NCBI GenBank assembly: GCA_017308135.1
Contig: JAFKFM010000014.1
Coordinates: 65,507 to 129,506 of the forward strand
Reading direction: 5' to 3'
Origin: Alphaproteobacteria bacterium
GTDB lineage: Bacteria; Pseudomonadota; Alphaproteobacteria; CACIAM-22H2
DNA: 64,000 nucleotides
A program made the translations under genes and the position numbers. Below, piece after piece: positions 16,632 through 28,250 of the stretch (position 1 is the first letter of the stretch; each line of letters begins with the position of its first letter). Below the pieces are notes generated by a model that worked only from the letters and a program-made list of their open reading frames with translations, was not told the origin of the DNA and ran no database searches.

Positions 16632-18428
16632 TCAAGCTCCTGCTGATGCGACATAGGGCCGCCACCCACCAAATTCGGAAATGTCGCGCGCTCCATTGAT
16701 CGCTGCGGCTTCGACGAGAAAGCCTTTTTCGATGCGTCCGTCGGCAAGGCGAACTGTTCCGATGCTCATCGGCGGCGGCACAGTGGCGACGAAGCGCCCG
16801 AATGCCTCGAAGCTCAGCGACCAGATTTCAGCTTCAATCGAGGTACCTTCGTTGTCGCTGACGCGAAGCAAACCCGGCTTGTTAACGGTGCCGGGAAGAG
16901 CAAACAGACGATAATCCGGAGAGGTGATACAACGCTCCATCAAGTTCGCGCCCAAAATGCGCAACTCGTTGTTGAGAGGCATGCCGGACATGTGCGCGCC
17001 AACGACCACAAGCGCGACTTTGTCGGGATGCGACGCGTTGAGACCAAGATTCGTGTTTGCCTGACGTTTGATCCCCAGCGCTCCGAGCGGCAAATCGGCC
17101 TGTCGATGCAACCTGTCAGCAAACCCGGCGATCGTCGCGTCTTGCCTGGCCGGCGCCAGCAGCGTCACCCCGAAAGGCGTTCCATTTGCCGCGATGCGAT
17201 TGGGTACGGCGATGGCGGCCAGATCGAGCAGATTGGCGAAGTTGGTGTAGGTGCCGAGATTGCTGTTGAGGGCGATGGGATCGGCGTCGAGCTGCGCGAC
17301 CGTGTAGACAGCCGGTACGGTCGGCACCATCAGCATGTCGATGGTCTTCAGGATGCCGATAGCCTGCGTGCGCAATTCTGCGAGCCGATAGAATGCACGG
17401 AACGTATCGACGGCAGATGGGGTCTTTCCCGCCATGATGATATTGCGGGTGATTGGATGAATATCGGGGAGATGAGCTTCAATAAAAGCGCCGACCGCCG
17501 CGTAGCGTTCGGCGATCCAAGGCCCTTCGTAGAGAAGACGCGCTGTTTCCAGAAACGGGGTGAAATCGACCTCGATCACCTCTGCATTCAACTGGGCAAG
17601 ATTTTCAATCGCAGACGAAAATGAAGCTTCGGCTTGAGCATCTCCGAAGAAATGGAGATCCTGCAGCCGCGGGACGCCAATTTTGACGTGAGGATTTGAC
17701 GGAAGCAGCTCACCCGGCGGAATGGATCGCGAGAACGGATCCGATGGATCATGAGCGGCCATGACTTGCAGTGCGGCAAAGGCATCGTCGACAGTGAGCG
17801 CGAAGACGGACACGCAATCGAGCGAGCGACAGGCCGGGACGACGCCTGTGGTCGAGAGCATCCCGCGCGATGGCTTGAGGCCAACGATATTGTTCAGTCC
17901 GGCGGGGATGCGGCCTGAACCGGCAGTATCAGTGCCGAGAGCCAGCGGCACCAGGCCTGCTGCCACGGCGACGGCGGAGCCGGAGCTTGAGCCGCCGGGC
18001 ACGAGGTCCGGATTCAGGGGATTGCGCGGAATGCCGTAAGGCGAGCGCGTACCGACGAGGCCGGTGGCGAATTGATCGAGATTTGTCTTCCCGACAATAA
18101 TCGCGCCGGCTTTGCGCAACCCTCCGACAACAGTCGCATCATGCTGCGGCATATAGGTGAAGGAAGGGCAGGCCGCCGTGGTGGGCAGACCCGCGACGTC
18201 GATATTGTCCTTGATCGCAACAGGAATGCCGTAAAGCGGATAATCCTCAGGGTTCTTCGCGCCTAGTGCCCGCGCTTCGGCAAGCAGATCCGCTTCGTCA
18301 CGCAACGATATGAAGATAGCCGCATCGCCATGCGCGCGGATACGGGTGATCGTCCGCGCGATCGTCTGCTCGGGCGTAACGGTCCGTGCACGATGCGATG
18401 CAAGGATCGAGGCGACAGTTTCGGGCAC
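16632..18428 (-). CDS. Allophanate hydrolase-like amidase (amidase-signature domain plus AtzF-type C-terminal domain)
   Basis: Amidase signature KDNIDVAGLPTTAACP...GGSSSGSAVAVA. The 598-aa length and the C-terminal ~120-aa domain are typical of allophanate hydrolases. Confidence 0.75.
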   Translation of the reverse strand: MPETVASILASHRARTVTPEQTIARTITRIRAHGDAAIFISLRDEADLLAEARALGAKNPEDYPLYGIPVAIKDNIDVAGLPTTAACPSFTYMPQHDATVVGGLRKAGAIIVGKTNLDQFATGLVGTRSPYGIPRNPLNPDLVPGGSSSGSAVAVAAGLVPLALGTDTAGSGRIPAGLNNIVGLKPSRGMLSTTGVVPACRSLDCVSVFALTVDDAFAALQVMAAHDPSDPFSRSIPPGELLPSNPHVKIGVPRLQDLHFFGDAQAEASFSSAIENLAQLNAEVIEVDFTPFLETARLLYEGPWIAERYAAVGAFIEAHLPDIHPITRNIIMAGKTPSAVDTFRAFYRLAELRTQAIGILKTIDMLMVPTVPAVYTVAQLDADPIALNSNLGTYTNFANLLDLAAIAVPNRIAANGTPFGVTLLAPARQDATIAGFADRLHRQADLPLGALGIKRQANTNLGLNASHPDKVALVVVGAHMSGMPLNNELRILGANLMERCITSPDYRLFALPGTVNKPGLLRVSDNEGTSIEAEIWSLSFEAFGRFVATVPPPMSIGTVRLADGRIEKGFLVEAAAINGARDISEFGGWRPYVASAGA

Positions 18429-18865: not shown

Positions 18866-18915
18866 TAATTGAGTGGCCGCCATGCCGGTGAGCATTGCAG
18901 GAATTGGGGAGCATC

Positions 18916-20412
18916 ATGATCAAGAACGGCGAACAGCATATTGCCAGCCTGCGTGACGGCCGCGAGGTTTACCTCGATGGTGAACTGGTCAAGGACGTTA
19001 CCACCCATCCAGCCTATCGCGGAGCAGTCGCTTCAATCGGACGTATGTTCGACTTCCAGAGCGCGCCGGAAAATCGCGATCTCATGACGTTCGAGACTGA
19101 GACCGGAACCCGCGCCAACCGGATATGGGAATTGCCGGGCAGCTACGACGCGCTGGTCAAGCGCCGTAAGGGCCTTGAGGCATGGACCGAACTTCATGCG
19201 GGATTCATGGGCCGCGCGCCGGACCATGTCGCATCCTGCATCGCGGGAATGTTCATGGGGCTCGATGTGTTCGAGGCTTATAATCCCGAACGTGCAAAGG
19301 CTCTTGCTGACTATTATCGCCATGCGCGCGACAACGATCTCTATCTGACTTACGTCATCATCAATCCGCAGGCTGACCGCTCCAAGAGTGCGGCCCAGCA
19401 GGCTGATCCGTTCCTGTCGGCGGGCGTTGTTTCGCGTGAGGCAGATGGTCTGATCATCCGCGGGGCCAAGATGCTGGCCACCGGCGGAATCATGGCCAAC
19501 GAAGTTTTCGTCACCTGCATTCAACCGCTGCAGCCCGGCGACGAGAAGTACGCGGTGTCCTTCGCCATTCCGATGAATACCAAGGGTCTGAAGATCCTGT
19601 CGCGCAAATCCTATGAAGCCGGCGCGAATTCGGTATTCGATAGCCCGCTCTCCAGCCGCTTCGACGAAAACGACGCGGTGCTCTATTTCGATGACGTGAA
19701 GGTGCCGTGGGATCGCGTGTTCATCGATCAGGACATCGCGATGTGCCAGAAGCAGTTCCATGCGACGCCGGCGCATGTATATCAGAACTATCAGGCAATG
19801 ATCCGGCTGACGGTCAAGCTGCGCTTTCTTACCGGTGTCGCGCATCGCACTGCCGAGATCAATGGCATCGTCGGCTTCCCGCAGGTTCGGGAAATGCTCG
19901 GTCAGCTTGCCGCCGAAGTCTCGATGGTGGAAGCTTTCGTGCTCGGCATGGAAGCCAAGGGCACGCAGCGCGGTCAATACTTCACGCCAGACCGGGCGCT
20001 CCTGTACGGAGCACAGGTGCTGACCCAGCAGCTCTATGCAAAGGTCATCAACACACTGCGCGAACTCGCCGGCGGCGGCATGATCATGCTGCCTTCCTCG
20101 GTGAAGGATTTCGCAAATCCCGAACTGGCGGCGTTGATCGGAAAGACTCAGCAGTCGCCGGCGGCGAATGCCGTCGACAAGGTGAAGTTCTACAAGCTTG
20201 CCTGGGATGCGGTGGGGTCCGAGTTTGCATCGCGGCATTCGCAATACGAAATGTTCTTTGCCGGCGCGACCTTCGTCACCAAGGGCCATGCGTTCCGCAC
20301 CTTCGATTGGGCGCAGTCGACTGCATTGCTCGACAAGATGCTGTCCAGCTACGATCTGGCGGATGAACTCACAACCGGTGGAAAATCTCCGGCGTCCCGC
20401 GCGGTCGCTTGA
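18916..20412 (+). CDS. 4-hydroxyphenylacetate 3-monooxygenase (HpaB) family flavin-dependent monooxygenase, oxygenase component
   Basis: N-terminal LRDGREVYLDGELVKDVTTHPAYRGAVASIGRMFDF matches the HpaB family. 499 aa. GGGGAG RBS. Confidence 0.85.
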   Translation: MIKNGEQHIASLRDGREVYLDGELVKDVTTHPAYRGAVASIGRMFDFQSAPENRDLMTFETETGTRANRIWELPGSYDALVKRRKGLEAWTELHAGFMGRAPDHVASCIAGMFMGLDVFEAYNPERAKALADYYRHARDNDLYLTYVIINPQADRSKSAAQQADPFLSAGVVSREADGLIIRGAKMLATGGIMANEVFVTCIQPLQPGDEKYAVSFAIPMNTKGLKILSRKSYEAGANSVFDSPLSSRFDENDAVLYFDDVKVPWDRVFIDQDIAMCQKQFHATPAHVYQNYQAMIRLTVKLRFLTGVAHRTAEINGIVGFPQVREMLGQLAAEVSMVEAFVLGMEAKGTQRGQYFTPDRALLYGAQVLTQQLYAKVINTLRELAGGGMIMLPSSVKDFANPELAALIGKTQQSPAANAVDKVKFYKLAWDAVGSEFASRHSQYEMFFAGATFVTKGHAFRTFDWAQSTALLDKMLSSYDLADELTTGGKSPASRAVA

Positions 20413-20816
20413 TCGGATAGACCGAAGGTCGGCCATTATCGCCGACACCCTTCACGATGGATTGCGCGCTGTCGATCCGTCGTGATGTTGCGTGCTGAGG
20501 CTATATTTCTCGGCGTTCGGTAAGCGGAGCTTAGCCAAGATATCGAGCAGCCAGATGGTGCGGCGGATGATGATCCGCTGCGGCAGACGTTTACACAGCC
20601 GAACCATTCGTCCATGAATATAAAGGTGCATCTGTTCACCGCCGATGTCGTCATCGCCGGTTCAGATGCGGGGAGGGGTCGGCTGACCGAATGCCTACGA
20701 AGCTACTTGCCATGCGGCAAATGCGGCCCATGGGGCCTGCACGGGAAGCCATGTGTTGACGGAGGCGCGCCATTTCGATCCAAGCTGAAACCGAGCCGCG
20801 GCGACTGATCGTCGGC

Positions 20817-21380
20817 ATGACCGGAGCGTCCGGTGCCATCTATGGCGTCCGGCTTCTTCAGCTATTGCAGCAGACTGACGTGGAAACACATCTTGTGCTG
20901 AGCAAGTCGGCCAAGATCACCTTGGCGCAGGAACTGGATATCAAGGTTTCCGATGTCCTCGCGCTCGCCGATGTCGTCCATCAGGCGGAGAATATCGGAG
21001 CCACGATTTCCAGCGGATCGTTCGCCACCATGGGCATGATAATCGCGCCGTGCTCCATGCGCAGTATGGCGGAGATATCGTCTGGCGCAACATCTTCACT
21101 GGTGACGCGCGCCGCCGACGTCGTGTTGAAGGAGCGCCGTCGTCTGGTTTTGATGGTCCGCGAAACACCGCTGCATCTCGGTCATCTCAGATCGATGGTT
21201 GCGGTGACTGAAATGGGCGGGATCGTCTATCCGCCGGTTCCGGCCTTCTATGCCAAGCCGTCAAGCATCGATCAGATGGTCGATCAGACGTTGGGGCGCG
21301 TGCTGGATCTTTTCGCGATCAAGACGGATGTCGTCCGTCGCTGGGAAGGGCTTACTCCGAGTAAAAGTCGAGATCAGTGA
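20817..21380 (+). CDS. UbiX/PAD1-family flavin prenyltransferase (prFMN synthase). The true start is probably upstream (ATT at 20772).
   Basis: GMTGASGAIYGVRLLQ...CSMRSMAEISSG. The conserved RRLIVG strand is encoded in frame immediately upstream of the first ATG. Confidence 0.8.
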   Translation: MTGASGAIYGVRLLQLLQQTDVETHLVLSKSAKITLAQELDIKVSDVLALADVVHQAENIGATISSGSFATMGMIIAPCSMRSMAEISSGATSSLVTRAADVVLKERRRLVLMVRETPLHLGHLRSMVAVTEMGGIVYPPVPAFYAKPSSIDQMVDQTLGRVLDLFAIKTDVVRRWEGLTPSKSRDQ

Positions 21381-21418
21381 CGGGTTAATTTGCAACGGGT
21401 CTTTGGGGGAGGGCGCGA

Positions 21419-21949
21419 ATGGCAAAGGAAGGCGAGAATTTCTCGAACGAAAGCTGGTCTTTCGCGTTGCGTCTCTATGCGGAGTCCGGCGTGGCCGAAG
21501 CGTGCCTTCGTTTGCAATCTATTGCGGGCGTCGATGTGATGATGCTTCTTGCTGTCTTATTCGCTGCGTCGCAAAAGAATATCTCATTGTCCTTTGAAGA
21601 TGTGAAAGCACTGGACGGTGTTTGCCGTCCATGGCGCGAGCAGGTCGTTCATCCTCTGCGTGCGCTGCGAACCGCTTTGAAGTCTGGACCGGCGCCCGCT
21701 CCAACATCTGAAACCGACCAGCTGCGTTCGCGCATCAAGGCCGATGAGCTTCAGGCTGAGCAGATCGAGAACGATCTGCTCGGCAACTGGCTGCAGCATA
21801 AAACACGGGCACCGGCCGCACTCTCGCGACATCAGGTCCGCGGCATTCTGGCAGACGTTGTGCGGTGCTTTGGTGCCGATTCCTCAACGATCGAAGTCTC
21901 TGCTGAGGTCGATGTCATTCTCGGCGCGACCGCCAGGCTCTCTGCATAG
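21419..21949 (+). CDS. Conserved hypothetical protein, DUF2390/TIGR02444-like (recognised from memory only)
   Basis: N-terminal SWSFALRLYAESGVAEACLRLQSIAGVDVMMLLAVLFAA pattern. Lies between the UbiX-like and UbiD-like genes. Confidence 0.55.
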   Translation: MAKEGENFSNESWSFALRLYAESGVAEACLRLQSIAGVDVMMLLAVLFAASQKNISLSFEDVKALDGVCRPWREQVVHPLRALRTALKSGPAPAPTSETDQLRSRIKADELQAEQIENDLLGNWLQHKTRAPAALSRHQVRGILADVVRCFGADSSTIEVSAEVDVILGATARLSA

Positions 21950-22024: not shown

Positions 22025-22057
22025 CCAATGCAATTTCTTGTGGGGACAGGACCTGAT

Positions 22058-23482
22058 ATGGCGCAGCCGCAAATTCTCGATACTCGTTTTCGTTCGGCGC
22101 TGGCGCGTCTTGCCAAGAAAGATCGCATCCTGACGTTTGAAAAGACGGCGGACCCCCATCTTGAAATCGCAGCGGTCTTGAAGAAGCACGATGGCCGCCA
22201 AACGATGCTGTTTCCCGCAGTCAAGGGATACGATGTTCCGCTGGTCGGTAATCTTCTCAGCTCGAAGGAGAATTGCGAGGCTGCGTTTGATCTCGATTTT
22301 CGTGGCATCCGCGGATTGGTTCAGCGCGCGCTCGGCGGACCATTGCCGCCGGAACTCGTCACGAATGCGCCTTCGCAGGAGGTTGTTCTTAAAACCGGAT
22401 TCGATGTCACCAAGCTGCTGCCTGCGCTTTTCCACGCGCCGGGTGATGCAGGGCGCTACGTCACCGCGGGGATCGTGATCGTCAAAGATCCTGAGACGGG
22501 TATCTACAACGCATCCTATCATCGCTTGCAGTTGCTGGGGCCGGATCGCTTCGCAATCAAGCTCGACTTCGGCCGGCATCTTCGTCTGGCATTCGAACGC
22601 GCCAAAGCGCGCGGCAAGTCGCTGCCGGTCGCCGTCTGTATCGGTACGGATCTTGCGCTGCATTTTACCGCCGCCACGATGGGCTCGCAGATGCCTGAGA
22701 CGGCTGACGAGCTTGCAGTTGCCGGTGGCCTTGCGGGGCGGCCGTTGACGGTTGCGAAGGCCGTGTCGCAAGACATGATCGTTCCGGCCGAATGCGAGTT
22801 CGTGCTCGAAGGCGAAATCTCGATTGACGAGGTTGCTCCGGAAGGACCGTTCGGCGAGTTCGTCGGGTTCGCCGCTCCCGCGGCCGATGCCCCCATTCTG
22901 AAGGTCACGGCGGTGACCCACCGCATGCGGCCGATCTATCACGTCATCAACGGCTTCGGCCGCGAGACGATTATCCTGCGCAAATACGTGTTGGAAGCGA
23001 GCCTTCTCAAGGTATTGCAGGCTGCAATCCCGATCGTGACGGATGTTGAGATGACGTCGGGCGGTTTGCACCGTTTTCATGCAATCATTCAGGTCGAGAA
23101 GCGGAGCCGTCAGCACAATGGATTGCAGCGCAACGCCATTCTCGCGGCGTTCGGCGCGCTGAAGGATTTGGATCTGATCACTGTGGTCGATCACGATATC
23201 GATATTCGCGACCCGATCGATGTCGAGTACGCGATCGCAACACGCATGGAAGCGTCGAGCGATCTATTCCTCATTCCCGGCGCGCGTGGGCACGAATATG
23301 TTCGTGTCAGCAAGGATGGTATCCGCACCAAACTCGGTATCGACGCAACGGTGCCTTTTGAGGATCAGGACAAGTTCCGGCGTGTTGAATTTGCCAAAAC
23401 CGATATCGAGCTTGGCGATTTTACACCGGGTGCCAATACGGCGATCCAGTCGCTCGGGATCGACGGATCGAACATCGCATAA
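22058..23482 (+). CDS. UbiD-family prFMN-dependent (de)carboxylase
   Basis: The N-terminal region and the APEGPFGEFVGF motif match UbiD-family decarboxylases. 474 aa. Confidence 0.85.
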   Translation: MAQPQILDTRFRSALARLAKKDRILTFEKTADPHLEIAAVLKKHDGRQTMLFPAVKGYDVPLVGNLLSSKENCEAAFDLDFRGIRGLVQRALGGPLPPELVTNAPSQEVVLKTGFDVTKLLPALFHAPGDAGRYVTAGIVIVKDPETGIYNASYHRLQLLGPDRFAIKLDFGRHLRLAFERAKARGKSLPVAVCIGTDLALHFTAATMGSQMPETADELAVAGGLAGRPLTVAKAVSQDMIVPAECEFVLEGEISIDEVAPEGPFGEFVGFAAPAADAPILKVTAVTHRMRPIYHVINGFGRETIILRKYVLEASLLKVLQAAIPIVTDVEMTSGGLHRFHAIIQVEKRSRQHNGLQRNAILAAFGALKDLDLITVVDHDIDIRDPIDVEYAIATRMEASSDLFLIPGARGHEYVRVSKDGIRTKLGIDATVPFEDQDKFRRVEFAKTDIELGDFTPGANTAIQSLGIDGSNIA

Positions 23483-23535: not shown

Positions 23536-24504
23536 ATGAAGCGACTTCTTATAGCAGCCTTGCTTGTGGGCACCGGACTAAGCGTTTCTACTGCTTCCGC
23601 GCAGGAATGGCCGAGCAAGTCGGCGATCAAGCTCGTCGTGCCTTATGCTCCCGGAGGATATACCGACTCCGTCGGTCGTATTACTGCGCGTTTTCTTGAA
23701 AAAGAACTCGGGCAGACGGTGATCGTCGACAACCGTCCGGGTGGAGGCGGCATCGTCGGTTCTGATCTGGTGTCGAAGTCCCCCGGCGACGGCTATACGC
23801 TTTGCATCTGCAGCGTGGGCGCAATCTCGATTGCTCCGGTGGCGCAGACCACGTCCTACGATCCGGTTAAAAGCTTCAAGCCGATCAGCATCGTCAGCAC
23901 CATCCCGCAGATGGTAATCGTCAATCCGTCGCTGCCGATCAACTCGATGGACGATCTGGTTAAGTATGCCAAGGCCAATCCCGGAAAGCTCACCTTCGGC
24001 TCGAGCGGCGCCGGTGGCCTGATGTATTACTCGGTCGCGCTGTTCGATAGCCGCGTCGGTACAAAAATGACTCATGTGCCGTTCAAGGGCGGAGCGCCGG
24101 CAACTGCCGCCGTGGTCGCGGGCGAGGTGAACCTGTCTTTCACCAACATGACGGATGCCCTGCCGCAGCTCGAGGCGAAAACCGTTCGTGCTCTCGCAGT
24201 GACGTCGGCAGGCCGTAGCGAGTTCGCCCCGAAGGTTCCGACTGTCGCCGAGACTGTCCTGCCTGGATATGCGGTTGAGTCTTGGAACGGCGTCATGGCA
24301 CCGGCCTCGACGCCCGATGCGATTGTCACAAAGGTTTCCGATGCCCTCAAGAAGATGGCAGCCGATCCCGAGGTGAAGAAGCAGATGTCGGTCGCAGGCG
24401 CGTCGACCGTGTTCACGACGCCAGCCGAATATAGCGCGCAGATCGCCAAGGAAGTCGATCAGTGGCGGGCGCTGCTCAAGGAAATCTCGGAAAAGAAGAC
24501 CTGA
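23536..24504 (+). CDS. tctC: Tripartite tricarboxylate transporter substrate-binding protein (TctC/Bug family)
   Basis: Signal peptide. VVPYAPGGYTDSVGRI...DNRPGGGG motifs typical of Bug/TctC. Confidence 0.85.
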   Translation: MKRLLIAALLVGTGLSVSTASAQEWPSKSAIKLVVPYAPGGYTDSVGRITARFLEKELGQTVIVDNRPGGGGIVGSDLVSKSPGDGYTLCICSVGAISIAPVAQTTSYDPVKSFKPISIVSTIPQMVIVNPSLPINSMDDLVKYAKANPGKLTFGSSGAGGLMYYSVALFDSRVGTKMTHVPFKGGAPATAAVVAGEVNLSFTNMTDALPQLEAKTVRALAVTSAGRSEFAPKVPTVAETVLPGYAVESWNGVMAPASTPDAIVTKVSDALKKMAADPEVKKQMSVAGASTVFTTPAEYSAQIAKEVDQWRALLKEISEKKT

Positions 24505-24579
24505 GCTTCAGCGATCGGCGGGCGGTGAGCTAGGTCTCACCGCTCGCCTTCTGTCTTCCGGCGGCATGGGAGCTTGCCA

Positions 24580-25029
24580 ATGAAATCTATCGCTCGGCGT
24601 GGAAATACCGACGTCTATTCGGGATTTCTTCTCGTTGCCATCTCGACTGTGGCGCTGCTGTACATCCGCACTCTGACGATCGGTACCGTGCTCGACATGG
24701 GGCCGGGCTATTTTCCTCTCGGTCTTGCCTTGATTTTGCTGGGCATGGGACTTGTCCTTGTGGTCAAGGGCCTTGCCGCGACGGGCTCGCCGGTCGGCAC
24801 CATTCATCTCCGCCCGCTCTTCTTTATCCTGCTGTCCTTCGCGGTGTTCGGCCTGCTGATCGAACGTGCTGGCCTCGTGATTGCGGTTCTGATGCAGGTC
24901 GCCATCGCGCATTTCGCCTCGCGTGAAAGCACCTGGCTTGCGAGCGTCATTACGGGCATTGCACTGGCGGTCGCGTCTTCCGTCGTCTTTGTCTGGCTTC
25001 TCAAGATTCCGGTGAACGTGCTGCCATGA
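24580..25029 (+). CDS. tctB: Tripartite tricarboxylate transporter small permease (TctB family)
   Basis: About 150 aa, four hydrophobic segments. Located between the tctC and tctA genes. Confidence 0.7.
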   Translation: MKSIARRGNTDVYSGFLLVAISTVALLYIRTLTIGTVLDMGPGYFPLGLALILLGMGLVLVVKGLAATGSPVGTIHLRPLFFILLSFAVFGLLIERAGLVIAVLMQVAIAHFASRESTWLASVITGIALAVASSVVFVWLLKIPVNVLP

Positions 25030-26528
25030 CGGATATCTTCGCTGCTCTCGGCCACGGTTTCTCTGTCGCGGCCACGCCTCTCAACCTGTTGTTCTGTTTG
25101 ATCGGCGCCATTTGCGGCACGCTGATCGGCGTGTTGCCGGGACTCGGACCGGTGGCAACGATTTCTTTGCTTCTGCCGGCGACCTATGCACTCGATCCGG
25201 TGAGTGCGATCATCATGCTCGCGGGCATTTATTACGGTGCGCAGTATGGCGGTTCGACCACGGCGATCCTTGTCAACATTCCGGGCGAGTCCACGTCGGT
25301 GGTGACGGCTATCGATGGTTACAAGATGGCGCAGCAGGGGCGGGCGGGCGAGGCGCTTGCCATCGCCGCCATCGGCTCTTTCATCGCGGGCTGTTTTGGA
25401 ACCGTGATTATTGCGCTGCTCGGACCGCCGTTGGCCGTGATGACACAGAAATTTGCGTCGCCTGATTATTTTTCGCTGATGGTGCTGGGTCTCGTCTCCG
25501 CCGTTGTGCTCGCCAACGGATCGGCTTTTCATGCGATCGCGATGATCTTCCTCGGCCTGCTGCTTGGCATGGTCGGCATGGACCTCAATACCGGCGAAGC
25601 GCGCATGACGTTCGGTCTGATCGAATTGTCGGATGGCATCAACTTCGTTGCACTGGTGATGGGTCTGTTCGGTGTTGCCGAGGTCATTGCCAATCTGGAA
25701 GGCGTTTCAACGCGGATTGTCAATCACTCCAAGATCAACAGCATCTGGCCGTCGTTCAAGGTACTGCGTGGCGCCTGGGGCGCAGTCACGCGCGGGACCC
25801 TGTTGGGGACGTTATTCGGCATTCTGCCGGGTGGCGGCGCAACCATTGCATCTTTTTCCTCCTATGCGCTCGAGAAGCGCGTTTCGAAGACGCCGGAGCG
25901 CTTCGGCAATGGAGCTATTGAGGGCGTCGCGGGGCCGGAGTCGGCCAACAATGCGGCAGCACAGACGTCCTTCGTTCCGCTCCTGACCATGGGCATTCCG
26001 ACCAGCGCAACCATGGCGCTTCTGGTCGGTGCGCTGACCTTGCACGGCATTGCTCCGGGGCCGACCATCATTTCGCGCCAGCCGGATCTGTTCTGGGGGC
26101 TGATCGCAAGCATGTTCATCGGCAATGCGATGCTGGTGATCATCAACCTGCCGATGATTGGAATCTGGGTCCGTCTGCTCAACGTGCCTTACCGGATCCT
26201 TTATCTTGTCATCGTCGTGATTTGCGCGATTGGCGTTTTCTCGGTCAACAACTCGAGTTTCGACATTTACATGACGGTCGGGTTCACGGCGCTCGGCTAC
26301 ATCCTGCGCAAGCTGAATGCCGAACCGGCGCCATTGCTGATGGGATTTGTCCTCGGTCCGATGCTGGAGGAGAATTTCCGCCGCAGCCTGATCACGGCGC
26401 ATGGGGATCCGACCGTGTTTCTGCAGAGGCCGATTAGCCTCGTTCTGCTGCTGTTGTCACTGGGATTGCTGATTTCGATCCTGATGCCTTCCATCAGCAA
26501 GCGCCGCCAGGAAGTCTTTCAGGAGTGA
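25026..26528 (+). CDS. tctA: Tripartite tricarboxylate transporter large permease (TctA family)
   Basis: 500-aa polytopic membrane protein. ATGA overlap with the tctB gene. Confidence 0.85.
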   Translation: MTDIFAALGHGFSVAATPLNLLFCLIGAICGTLIGVLPGLGPVATISLLLPATYALDPVSAIIMLAGIYYGAQYGGSTTAILVNIPGESTSVVTAIDGYKMAQQGRAGEALAIAAIGSFIAGCFGTVIIALLGPPLAVMTQKFASPDYFSLMVLGLVSAVVLANGSAFHAIAMIFLGLLLGMVGMDLNTGEARMTFGLIELSDGINFVALVMGLFGVAEVIANLEGVSTRIVNHSKINSIWPSFKVLRGAWGAVTRGTLLGTLFGILPGGGATIASFSSYALEKRVSKTPERFGNGAIEGVAGPESANNAAAQTSFVPLLTMGIPTSATMALLVGALTLHGIAPGPTIISRQPDLFWGLIASMFIGNAMLVIINLPMIGIWVRLLNVPYRILYLVIVVICAIGVFSVNNSSFDIYMTVGFTALGYILRKLNAEPAPLLMGFVLGPMLEENFRRSLITAHGDPTVFLQRPISLVLLLLSLGLLISILMPSISKRRQEVFQE

Positions 26529-26573: not shown

Positions 26574-28250
26574 ATGAACAAGCATCAATCGGCGCAGGCC
26601 GTGACCGGAGAAGCCGGCTTGCGCAATGGCGGGCAAATTCTGGTGTCTGCGTTGCGGCGCAATGGAGCCGATCGCATGTTCGGCGTGCCTGGTGAAAGCG
26701 CACTGCCGATTTTCGACGCTGTTTATGAGCCTGATGCTGGTGTCCGGTTCATTATGTGCCGGCACGAGGCGACGGCGTCCCACATGGCGGAGGCTGACGG
26801 TAAGCTCTCCAAGCGGCCCGGTATTTGCGTGGTAAGCCGTGGCCCAGGCGCGATGCAGGCGGCGATAGGTTTACATACGGCATGGCAGGATTCCACGCCG
26901 ATGATCTTGATTGTCGGCCAGGTGCCGCGCAGCCATCGCGGCCGCGAAGCCTTTCAGGAAATGGATTATAGCCGGACGTTCGATGATATGACGAAGTGGG
27001 CGGTGGAGATCGACTCCGTCGATCGCATTCCCGAGATTGTCAGCCGTGCTTTCCATGTCGCGATGCAGGGGCGCCCGGGACCAGTGGTCTTGTCGATACC
27101 CGAAGACGTGCTGAGCGCGACAAGCAGTGTCGCCGATGCTGCGCCGGCGACGACCATTGATGCCGCGCCGTCGGCCCAACAGATGGCCGATGTACGTCGG
27201 CTTCTGCAGCAGGCGCAGCGTCCATTGGTTATTGTTGGGAATCTCGGTTGGAATGTAGAGGCGGCTTCCAGGTTCCGCACCTTCGTGGAGCAAAACAATC
27301 TGCCGGTTGTCGCGGGATTCCGGTCGCAGGACGTGCTCGACAATCGCTCCGAACAATATATCGGCGACATCAGCCTCGGTTGCAGCCGGCCGCTGATGGC
27401 GCGGGTAAAGACGGCGGACCTGCTTCTTGTGATCGGTGATCGTCTCGGCGACGTCACCACCAATCATTATTCGCTGTTCGATGTGCCGACGCCGAAGCAG
27501 GCACTGATTCATGTTTTCCCCGGGCCGGAAGAACTCGGGCGAGTCTATGTGCCGACACTCGGCATTCCTGCCAATTCCTCTCGCTTTGCCGAAGCTCTCG
27601 CGCAGCTCGATCCTCTCGATCATTCGTCCTGGGATGCGTGGCGGGCGGAATCGCGTCTGGCCTATGTCGAGTATCAGGCGCCGCGACCGGATTTTCCGCC
27701 TTTCGATCTTGCGAAGGTGATTGATCACCTCAACACCGCATTACCTGACGATGCGATCGTAACAAACGGAGCCGGCAATTACACGGTCTGGCTGCACCGT
27801 TATTATCGCTATCGCGGCCTTGGCACCCAGATCGCTCCGAAGTCCGGCACCATGGGGTATGGACTGCCCGCCGCGGTCGCCGCGCAACTGCGCCATCCCG
27901 AACGCCGGGTTGTCTGTCTCGCCGGGGATGGCTGTTTCATGATGGCCTCGCAGGAATTCGCAACCGTCGTTCAGCAGAAGCTCCCGGTCGTCATCATCAT
28001 CGTCAACAACACGATGTACGGCTCGATCCGCATGCATCAGGAATTGAGCTTTCCGAACCGCCCCAGCGGGACGGATCTGCTGAATCCGGATTTTGCAGCG
28101 CTGGCGAAATCCTATGGTGCGTATGGCGAAGCCATCGACGCACATGACGATTTCCCGGCGGCCTTTTCGCGTGCGGTTAACGCGGGTGGCCCCGCGATCA
28201 TCGAACTTCGCGTCAACCGCAAGCAACTGACTCCGGATCGCTCGCTCTGA
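26574..28250 (+). CDS. Thiamine pyrophosphate-dependent enzyme, acetolactate synthase/benzoylformate decarboxylase superfamily
   Basis: N-terminal TPP pyrimidine-binding domain. C-terminal GDGCFMM...NN TPP-binding motif. 558 aa. Confidence 0.8.
   Translation: MNKHQSAQAVTGEAGLRNGGQILVSALRRNGADRMFGVPGESALPIFDAVYEPDAGVRFIMCRHEATASHMAEADGKLSKRPGICVVSRGPGAMQAAIGLHTAWQDSTPMILIVGQVPRSHRGREAFQEMDYSRTFDDMTKWAVEIDSVDRIPEIVSRAFHVAMQGRPGPVVLSIPEDVLSATSSVADAAPATTIDAAPSAQQMADVRRLLQQAQRPLVIVGNLGWNVEAASRFRTFVEQNNLPVVAGFRSQDVLDNRSEQYIGDISLGCSRPLMARVKTADLLLVIGDRLGDVTTNHYSLFDVPTPKQALIHVFPGPEELGRVYVPTLGIPANSSRFAEALAQLDPLDHSSWDAWRAESRLAYVEYQAPRPDFPPFDLAKVIDHLNTALPDDAIVTNGAGNYTVWLHRYYRYRGLGTQIAPKSGTMGYGLPAAVAAQLRHPERRVVCLAGDGCFMMASQEFATVVQQKLPVVIIIVNNTMYGSIRMHQELSFPNRPSGTDLLNPDFAALAKSYGAYGEAIDAHDDFPAAFSRAVNAGGPAIIELRVNRKQLTPDRSL

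Follow-up and report, generated by a model that had tools for sequence, protein, structure and literature searches.

The DUF2390/TIGR02444 protein family and its genomic association with the flavin prenyltransferase UbiX

The flavin prenyltransferase UbiX produces the oxygen-sensitive cofactor prFMNH2, the reduced form of prenylated flavin mononucleotide (prFMN), which must reach an apo-UbiD and be oxidized to the iminium form (PMC10865409, PMC13040415). UbiD-family decarboxylases have a central place in ubiquinone synthesis and in the degradation of aromatics, and are attractive as biocatalysts that carboxylate and decarboxylate reversibly or fix CO2. How prFMN is delivered and matured is poorly understood, and for this reason many of these enzymes, the canonical E. 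coli UbiD among them, cannot be produced in an active state. The only two accessory families, LpdD and PhdC/YclD, date from 2024-2025 and are taxonomically narrow (PMC10865409, PMC13040415). The authors expect others, and the LpdD study states that further prFMNH2-binding chaperone(s), still to be identified, must exist (PMC10865409). Here we analyze a 64-kb stretch of the alphaproteobacterial contig JAFKFM010000014.1 (hereafter the window), in which a gene of the DUF2390/TIGR02444 family (21419-21949, + strand) lies between genes for UbiX and a UbiD-family decarboxylase. We find a genomic tie between DUF2390 and UbiX that extends over Alpha- and Betaproteobacteria and covers housekeeping as well as catabolic contexts, and discuss its possible role in the prFMN system.

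The described systems closest to this locus differ from it in fold or in genomic partner. The D subunits VdcD/BsdD/EcdD (NF041205) resemble DUF2390 in being small proteins encoded in prFMN decarboxylase operons, and VdcD-type D subunits bind the decarboxylase. They have 70-80 aa, carry a CxxC zinc-finger signature and are encoded after the VdcC-type gene, whereas the window DUF2390 protein has 176 aa and no NF041205 match. SdhE/SDHAF2 is a small helical-bundle protein that aids flavin delivery or attachment, and is not a usual enzyme. This flavinylation assembly factor of succinate dehydrogenase has been cited as a precedent (PMC10865409); its likeness to DUF2390 is by analogy only, since no sequence or structure similarity was detected and its cofactor and client are different. 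LpdD, from the Lactiplantibacillus plantarum gallate decarboxylase LpdBCD, is likewise small, non-catalytic, encoded with UbiX/UbiD genes and present in a minority of systems (PMC10865409). It is a Pba3/4-like α/β dimer with a His-His-Asp Mn site (PMC10865409) and is linked to the decarboxylase gene, whereas DUF2390 has seven predicted helices with no PDB match and is linked chiefly to UbiX. LpdD binds prFMNH2 and assists loading (PMC10865409), and the role considered below for DUF2390 is modelled on it by analogy. PhdC/YclD (PMC13040415) is also an accessory gene of UbiX/UbiD clusters with a restricted range, and conserved Glu residues have been proposed to be key to its function. It is a class I HpaC-like flavin reductase β-barrel that oxidizes the prFMN radical form, and occurs in Actinomycetota and Bacillota (PMC13040415). 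DUF2390 in contrast is all-helical, and occurs for the most part in Alpha- and Betaproteobacteria and to some extent in Gammaproteobacteria; the window protein has no Flavin_Reduct Pfam match.

The window gene runs from ATG to TAG. Its product matches Pfam PF09523 (DUF2390; E=1.9e-27, 96.1 bits, gathering cutoff 25) over positions 3-105 of the 106-position profile, as well as NCBIfam TIGR02444 (95.2 bits, cutoff 48.3); COG5589 is the same family (PMC9394441). The family assignment given in the preliminary description was therefore right, and its placement of the gene between UbiX-like and UbiD-like genes with short gaps also holds. The UbiX stop codon is followed after 38 nt by the DUF2390 ATG, and the DUF2390 stop codon after 78 or 108 nt by the UbiD start (there are two possible UbiD starts). 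A Shine-Dalgarno-like sequence, GGGGGAGGG (21405-21413, +), is located 5 nt 5' of the DUF2390 ATG and may function in its translation. No terminator-like sites above chance were found between the UbiX, DUF2390 and UbiD genes, each of which occurs once in the window. The ratio of nonsynonymous to synonymous substitution rates (dN/dS) of the DUF2390 gene is 0.24 relative to a 96%-identical contig and 0.21 relative to Tardiphaga, indicating purifying selection, and the open reading frame (ORF) is therefore a constrained coding gene. It nevertheless evolves four to five times faster than the flanking UbiD, HpaB and TctC genes (dN/dS 0.02-0.06). The family signature (W13, F15, Y20, Q33, W72, R81, R84, K88, R103, K107, E110, E114) is complete in the window protein, and the gene, taken alone, is an unremarkable representative of a family already described but without an assigned function.

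The DUF2390 family comprises 3,340 representatives of 50%-identity clusters (E<=1e-3). Its linkage was surveyed in one genome per species, using a degenerate DNA pattern built on nine near-invariant residues (W72, L80, R81, R84, K88, R103, K107, E110, E114). The pattern matches once in the window (0 expected), at 12/12 known loci and in 109/150 diverse representatives. The scan returned at least 120 8-kb blocks, of which 118 of the 120 listed contain a true DUF2390 by hidden Markov model (HMM) search; the counts and percentages that follow refer to the matches listed. The same pattern applied to viral contigs gave a single 1-kb locus, in which DUF2390 was not found.

UbiX (E<1e-20) is encoded within the same 8-kb block at 78/118 loci (66%), and either UbiX or UbiD at 81/118 (69%). 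By our own estimate, the chance of UbiX in a random 8-kb block is below 1%, given 1-3 UbiX genes per 3-9 Mb genome. At 68 loci UbiX abuts DUF2390 on the same strand, being immediately upstream at 55 and immediately downstream at 13, and at 10 loci it is on the opposite strand. For the upstream arrangement the median gap between the HMM-aligned regions is 26 nt, so the UbiX and DUF2390 genes abut or overlap. UbiD is present in the block at 14/118 loci, and the likely partner is the prenyltransferase and its product rather than the decarboxylase, because UbiX is by far the more frequent neighbor. In Caulobacterales (41/118 loci) UbiX is adjacent at 40/41, and the UbiX-DUF2390 pair occurs there without UbiD in view. 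Of the 77 remaining loci, 41 show linkage, with no fewer than six gene orders and orientations. The orders seen include UbiX upstream or downstream of DUF2390 on the same strand (ubix>duf>, duf>ubix>), convergent (duf><ubix) and divergent (<ubix duf>) pairs, and UbiD on either side. At least one linked locus is found under 35/49 taxon labels, and in a neighbor-joining tree of DUF2390 the members linked to UbiX or UbiD are scattered over many separate clades. Because linkage recurs outside Caulobacterales, in varied orders and many clades, it is more than inherited synteny. An apparent UbiX-DUF2390 fusion (L045; L numbers are our locus handles), with both matches within a single open frame, belongs to a metagenome-assembled genome labelled as nanopore, and is taken as a frameshift artefact because no fusion occurs among the 150 representatives or the longest family members.

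Plasmids offer a sample independent of the pattern. DUF2390 was detected by tblastn on 62 plasmid records, and nine loci from nine genera were inspected with their deposited annotation. UbiD and/or UbiX are found within 10 kb of DUF2390 at 9/9. On Paracoccus denitrificans plasmid 1 (L014) and Sinorhizobium meliloti pSymA (L017), the TIGR02444 gene is at the end of, or just past, a UbiD-UbiX-racemase-oxidoreductase operon, and Brucella anthropi pOANT03 (L148) has the order UbiD-UbiX-TIGR02444. In Dinoroseobacter shibae TIGR02444 and UbiX are convergent, followed by LysR and UbiD; in Pseudohalocynthiibacter a UbiD-UbiX pair is 3.6 kb downstream of DUF2390; in Agrobacterium vitis DUF2390 is in the same operon, seven genes apart. 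On Novosphingobium pNL1 and Sphingobium p1 TIGR02444 adjoins VdcC-VdcD, with the Sphingobium UbiX 7 kb away. In Phyllobacterium zundukense (NZ_CP017944.1; L146 11213-12967, - strand) a UbiD pseudogene that lacks annotation and is broken by frameshifts into three pieces adjoins a TIGR02444 gene truncated to 128 aa and a gene for a GntR regulator, which suggests that DUF2390 and UbiD decayed jointly. The linkage in other genomes, on which the preliminary description had made its idea of an accessory factor depend, is thus conserved in both samples (81/118 species-level loci, 9/9 plasmid loci).

The plasmid loci also reveal a recurrent operon consisting of a HutC/UTRA regulator, UbiD and UbiX (L014, L017, L148). 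The Paracoccus and Sinorhizobium versions add an Asp/Glu racemase and a three-part oxidoreductase of the flavin adenine dinucleotide/2Fe-2S type. This operon looks like a catabolic pathway for an amino-acid-derived heteroaromatic acid.

Among close relatives of the window protein (44-92% identity; Tardiphaga, Bradyrhizobium, Pseudorhodoplanes and metagenomes), five gene arrangements are found around DUF2390. The order UbiX-DUF2390-UbiD is shared by the window, L001-L006, L033 and L078, and the Tardiphaga version, with a HpaC-like reductase and a second UbiD, counts as an arrangement of its own. Bradyrhizobium sp. NP1 (L007) has UbiX-DUF2390 with UbiD not nearby. At L010 UbiX and DUF2390 overlap by 4 bp, TctC-UbiD is transcribed divergently from them, and another UbiD gene lies 3 kb downstream; L012 has the order DUF2390, GntR, UbiD, ABC transporter, UbiX. 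A profile search aimed at distant named homologs returned mostly this close subfamily again.

The AlphaFold2 model of the window protein, computed with 86 homologs, has a mean predicted local distance difference test (pLDDT) of 92.1 and a predicted template-modelling score (pTM) of 0.87. It contains seven helices (residues 4-20, 25-36, 40-52, 59-89, 97-125, 137-150 and 157-175), and the protein is predicted to be soluble and all-helical. With 176 aa, it is in keeping with the family's format of one domain and about 160-190 aa. Conservation, measured on 43 diverse representatives and on the 86 homologs, singles out near-invariant polar residues on one face of helix 4 (R81, R84, K88; i, i+3, i+7) and on one face of helix 5 (R103, K107, E110, E114; i, i+4, i+7, i+11), in addition to W13, F15, Y20, Q33, D39 and W72. 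Because the helix-4 and helix-5 residues flank the 90-96 loop on the faces of a hairpin, they are expected to join into one charged patch across it, judging from helical periodicity rather than from coordinates.

Taken together, these features lead us to consider that DUF2390 is an accessory protein of the UbiX step in the prFMN system, a proposal that we rate at even chances and that is the best working hypothesis because the linkage with UbiX/UbiD is conserved. The UbiD enzymes that accompany DUF2390 are variable (generic UbiD, VdcC-type or none) while UbiX is the constant neighbor, pointing to a shared cofactor step rather than a particular substrate. The dN/dS of 0.21-0.24, against 0.02-0.06 for the flanking genes, is what a binding or adaptor protein would be expected to show. 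A non-catalytic partner of UbiX would fit the tight pairing, the diverse UbiDs, the adaptor-like rate and the conserved basic/acidic and aromatic patch. In the proposed mechanism DUF2390, a small, soluble, all-helical and non-catalytic protein, would share a transcript with the flavin prenyltransferase gene, and its translation would probably be coupled to that of UbiX in many genomes. It would bind UbiX and/or its oxygen-sensitive product prFMNH2 through a surface made up of the helix-4/helix-5 hairpin and the N-terminal helices, with the signature residues Arg81, Arg84, Lys88, Arg103, Lys107, Glu110 and Glu114, plus Trp13, Phe15, Tyr20, Gln33 and Trp72, as putative contacts. It would then help to transfer the cofactor to apo-UbiD, the role that LpdD has in lactobacilli, here by means of an unrelated fold. 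The narrower idea that DUF2390 is a specific prFMNH2 chaperone is our preferred mechanism within this role but is tentative, with clearly less than even chances.

In the library of papers searched, no publication was found that joins DUF2390, TIGR02444, COG5589 or PF09523 to UbiX or UbiD. The DUF2390-UbiX association appears to be a new element, prFMN accessories already being a known kind. One published candidate, the 'chaperone-like LA1_0143' beside UbiX in Cupriavidus LA-1, was set aside, being a metallochaperone that binds GTP and serves a different enzyme. As a third candidate accessory, DUF2390 would be a structurally unrelated and much more widespread variant of the prFMN accessory, with a confidently predicted but unprecedented helical fold, and the linkage provides a first functional context for DUF2390/TIGR02444/COG5589. 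In the broadest form of the proposal, DUF2390 would be a widespread prFMN-handling protein with a new flavin-cofactor-binding fold, which would dock on UbiX and transfer prFMNH2 from there to apo-UbiD, including in the housekeeping ubiquinone pathway of Caulobacterales and other Alphaproteobacteria; this we regard as possible, with the chances rather against it. If this broad form is true, DUF2390 is one of the prFMNH2-binding chaperones postulated in the LpdD study, and its co-expression could unlock UbiD enzymes that are inactive in heterologous hosts.

Several observations weigh against a role as a UbiX-associated accessory. The survey pattern was derived mainly from alphaproteobacterial sequences, and the sample is phylogenetically clumped, 41 of the 118 listed loci being from Caulobacterales. 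Neither UbiX nor UbiD is in the block at ~31% of the listed loci, and 21 listed blocks are without any tracked family; the blocks show 0.1-7.5 kb per side, so that some unlinked loci may be false negatives. A Xanthobacteraceae/Rhodoplanes clade has unrelated neighbors (Ldh_2, YkuD, DctP, enoyl-CoA hydratase, GGT). The number of plasmid records with UbiX is 414 versus 62 with DUF2390, and most UbiX systems therefore run without DUF2390, which would be an optional companion like LpdD and PhdC. The signature residues are equally conserved in unlinked DUF2390 members, so the function need not be UbiX-specific. For the residues of the search pattern such a comparison by context is circular, and the unbiased figures are those from the 43 diverse representatives; W13, Y20 and Q33 in the N-terminal part, which are outside the pattern, are conserved in every context class, and Cys29 is not. 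A Foldseek search of the model against 350,542 PDB chains (to April 2026) gave no match at E<=0.001 and template-modelling (TM) scores of at most 0.30, with 14-3-3 as the best match (E=0.25, TM 0.26), and the model shows no likeness to flavin-binding or chaperone structures in the PDB. The family profile matched only designed helical repeats among PDB sequences. No extra domains were found in the longest members, and no fusion hints at function.

A conserved alphaproteobacterial chromosomal locus has the order QOR, TrcR, (DUF465), UbiX, DUF2390, DUF465, PurE, PurK and, on the opposite strand, a COQ9-like gene (by Pfam; within L023-L135, e.g. L135, L077, L081, L104). Weighing further against the accessory role, the same locus keeps DUF2390 without UbiX in Marinicaulis, Parvularculaceae, Rhodospirillaceae and Neomegalonema. 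In Oleispira-type Gammaproteobacteria (L138-L144, L150-L153, L066), moreover, the constant neighbor of DUF2390 is a divergent ABC-F ATPase gene, and in those loci with 10-kb flanks (5/5) a housekeeping UbiD-Fre pair is ~7 kb upstream and UbiX is absent. As side observations, the first locus sets UbiX and DUF2390 near a COQ9 homolog, which is a ubiquinone context, and near the purEK carboxylation genes, and in the Oleispira-type loci the ABC-F ATPase gene overlaps a HemN-like radical-SAM gene, with differing genes downstream.

These loci bear on the explanation that survives best next to the accessory role, namely that DUF2390 has a function outside prFMN metabolism (housekeeping, regulatory or translation-linked) and that its adjacency to UbiX is historical synteny from the ancestral alphaproteobacterial locus, carried along into catabolic clusters. 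The QOR-to-COQ9 locus with its UbiX-free lineages, the pairing of gammaproteobacterial members with the ABC-F ATPase, the existence of lone DUF2390 copies and the conservation of the signature in all context classes are all in keeping with it. It leaves unexplained, however, the many orders and orientations relative to UbiX, the positions several genes away in the same operon (Paracoccus, Agrobacterium vitis), the association with UbiD alone (L086, L097, L114, pNL1) and the joint decay with UbiD in Phyllobacterium, and the five Oleispira-type loci with 10-kb flanks do have a housekeeping UbiD within 10 kb. We consider synteny without a prFMN function rather unlikely.

DUF2390 might alternatively feed UbiX, by making or delivering dimethylallyl monophosphate (DMAP), e.g. 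from dimethylallyl pyrophosphate minus one phosphate, or by presenting reduced flavin mononucleotide (FMNH2). How bacteria come by DMAP is, to our knowledge, not firmly established. The tightest neighbor of DUF2390 is UbiX and not UbiD, the Caulobacterales pair lacks a nearby UbiD, and an Arg/Lys cluster with two Glu on one helical hairpin would suit a phosphate or metal ligand. However, the protein has no recognizable hydrolase or kinase motif or fold and no likeness to Nudix, MazG-type or HAD proteins, its faster evolutionary rate is not enzyme-like, and DUF2390 is missing from most UbiX systems, making this role improbable.

A role as oxidative maturase like PhdC/YclD, converting prFMNH2 or a dead-end radical to the iminium form with Glu110 and Glu114 perhaps in acid-base catalysis, would share the genomic association with the UbiX/UbiD system. 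It would also put to use two near-invariant Glu one helical turn apart, conserved Glu having been proposed for PhdC (PMC13040415). Against this, the fold is wholly unlike the HpaC-like flavin reductase of PhdC, a flavin-binding motif is not evident, the association is with UbiX and not UbiD, and the evolutionary rate is relaxed; we think such a maturase quite improbable. Should the accessory role itself prove wrong, the strong adjacency to UbiX would still require explanation.

The preliminary description had placed the gene in the slot of the small D subunit of BCD systems, and this part of it did not stand. In true BCD clusters (Novosphingobium pNL1, Sphingobium p1) the 74-aa VdcD is encoded after VdcC; in the window it is TctC that comes after UbiD. 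The window UbiD is below the cutoffs for VdcC (239.8 bits versus 650) and PRK10922 (150 versus 788), and by these scores is neither VdcC-type nor a ubiquinone UbiD. The system is therefore not BCD-type, and no D subunit is expected. No VdcD-like ORF was found in the 64-kb window at E<=10, and the window protein has TIGR02444 as its only NCBIfam match and none to NF041205, whereas the pNL1 positive control returned VdcC at 677.8 bits and VdcD at 65.6 bits (cutoff 30; also a match to the MJ0042 CXXC model). The small size of the protein and the position of its gene, a short distance from a B-like gene on one side and a C-like gene on the other, might suggest that DUF2390 takes the place of D as a structural subunit in the UbiD-like decarboxylase. 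This reading is largely refuted and very improbable, given the low VdcC score of the window UbiD, the presence of DUF2390 on pNL1 and Sphingobium p1 alongside true VdcC and VdcD, its frequent occurrence with UbiX while no UbiD is in view, and its 176-aa all-helical form versus the 74-aa Zn-ribbon of VdcD. DUF2390 neither replaces D nor holds its position, and its constant neighbor is the B-type gene UbiX.

The surrounding cluster, all on the + strand, has the order HpaB-like monooxygenase, UbiX, DUF2390, UbiD, TctC, TctB, TctA and thiamine-diphosphate enzyme. The window DNA shares ~96% identity with three metagenome contigs and 77-80% with Tardiphaga, which makes its source a Nitrobacteraceae relative. 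The cluster opens with the oxygenase component of a HpaB-like flavin-dependent monooxygenase (18895-20412; HpaB_N, HpaB), and the order is kept in L001-L004. The UbiX-family flavin prenyltransferase (20772-21380; NF004685, 263 bits, cutoff 188) has its longest canonical ORF from ATG 20817. The UbiD-family decarboxylase (22028-23482; Pfam UbiD_N, UbiD and UbiD_C; TIGR00148, 305 bits, cutoff 245) has 484 aa if started at ATG 22028, or 474 aa from ATG 22058, the start called in L001, a near-identical contig. Next come TctC (23536-24504; Pfam match in the window), TctB (24574-25029) and TctA (25026-26528), the latter two as annotated by Pfam in contig L001, which is 96% identical. Together they form a tripartite transporter of the tricarboxylate type, which presumably imports the carboxylate substrate. 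An acetolactate-synthase-like thiamine-diphosphate enzyme (26574-28250; TPP_enzyme_N, M and C) is the last conserved gene of the cluster (L001, L004).

The start of UbiX is unusual. No ATG, GTG or TTG is found 5' of its conserved first β-strand RRLIVG (window 20760-20831, aligned with Tardiphaga and Bradyrhizobium UbiX; equivalent regions L001 7125-7199, L004 7364-7438 and L078 2498-2572). A conserved ATT (window 20772) is located 6 nt 3' of GGAG(G/A) in the window, L001 and two Tardiphaga genomes, and the position of window ATG 20817 is ATT or ATC in Tardiphaga. Because the RRLIVG strand is encoded 5' of ATG 20817, the ATT at 20772 is likely a rare initiation codon, which may hold UbiX expression low. 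Between the HpaB and UbiX genes is a small ORF (window 20480-20808; L004 7015-7293; L002 6804-7058) of 92 aa in Tardiphaga, 84 aa in a related contig and 64 aa in the window owing to an in-frame TAA. It matches no Pfam or NCBIfam family, does not resemble VdcD and is probably a decaying gene. A Cys-containing ORF at 20614-20808 was tried as a cryptic D subunit and rejected, having no Pfam or NCBIfam match, being interrupted relative to its relatives and not being VdcD-like.

In Tardiphaga, but not in the window, a HpaC-type flavin reductase gene adjoins HpaB. Divergent from the HpaB-UbiX-DUF2390-UbiD cluster is an allophanate-hydrolase-like amidase (Amidase and AH_C; 16632-18428, - strand), after which an NMT1-type ABC transporter comes in contig L001. 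Directly 3' of the TctC gene a 13-bp GC-rich hairpin is followed by a T-rich tract (24517-24548), and may act as an intra-operon attenuator or mRNA stabilizer between the genes for the binding protein and the membrane components.

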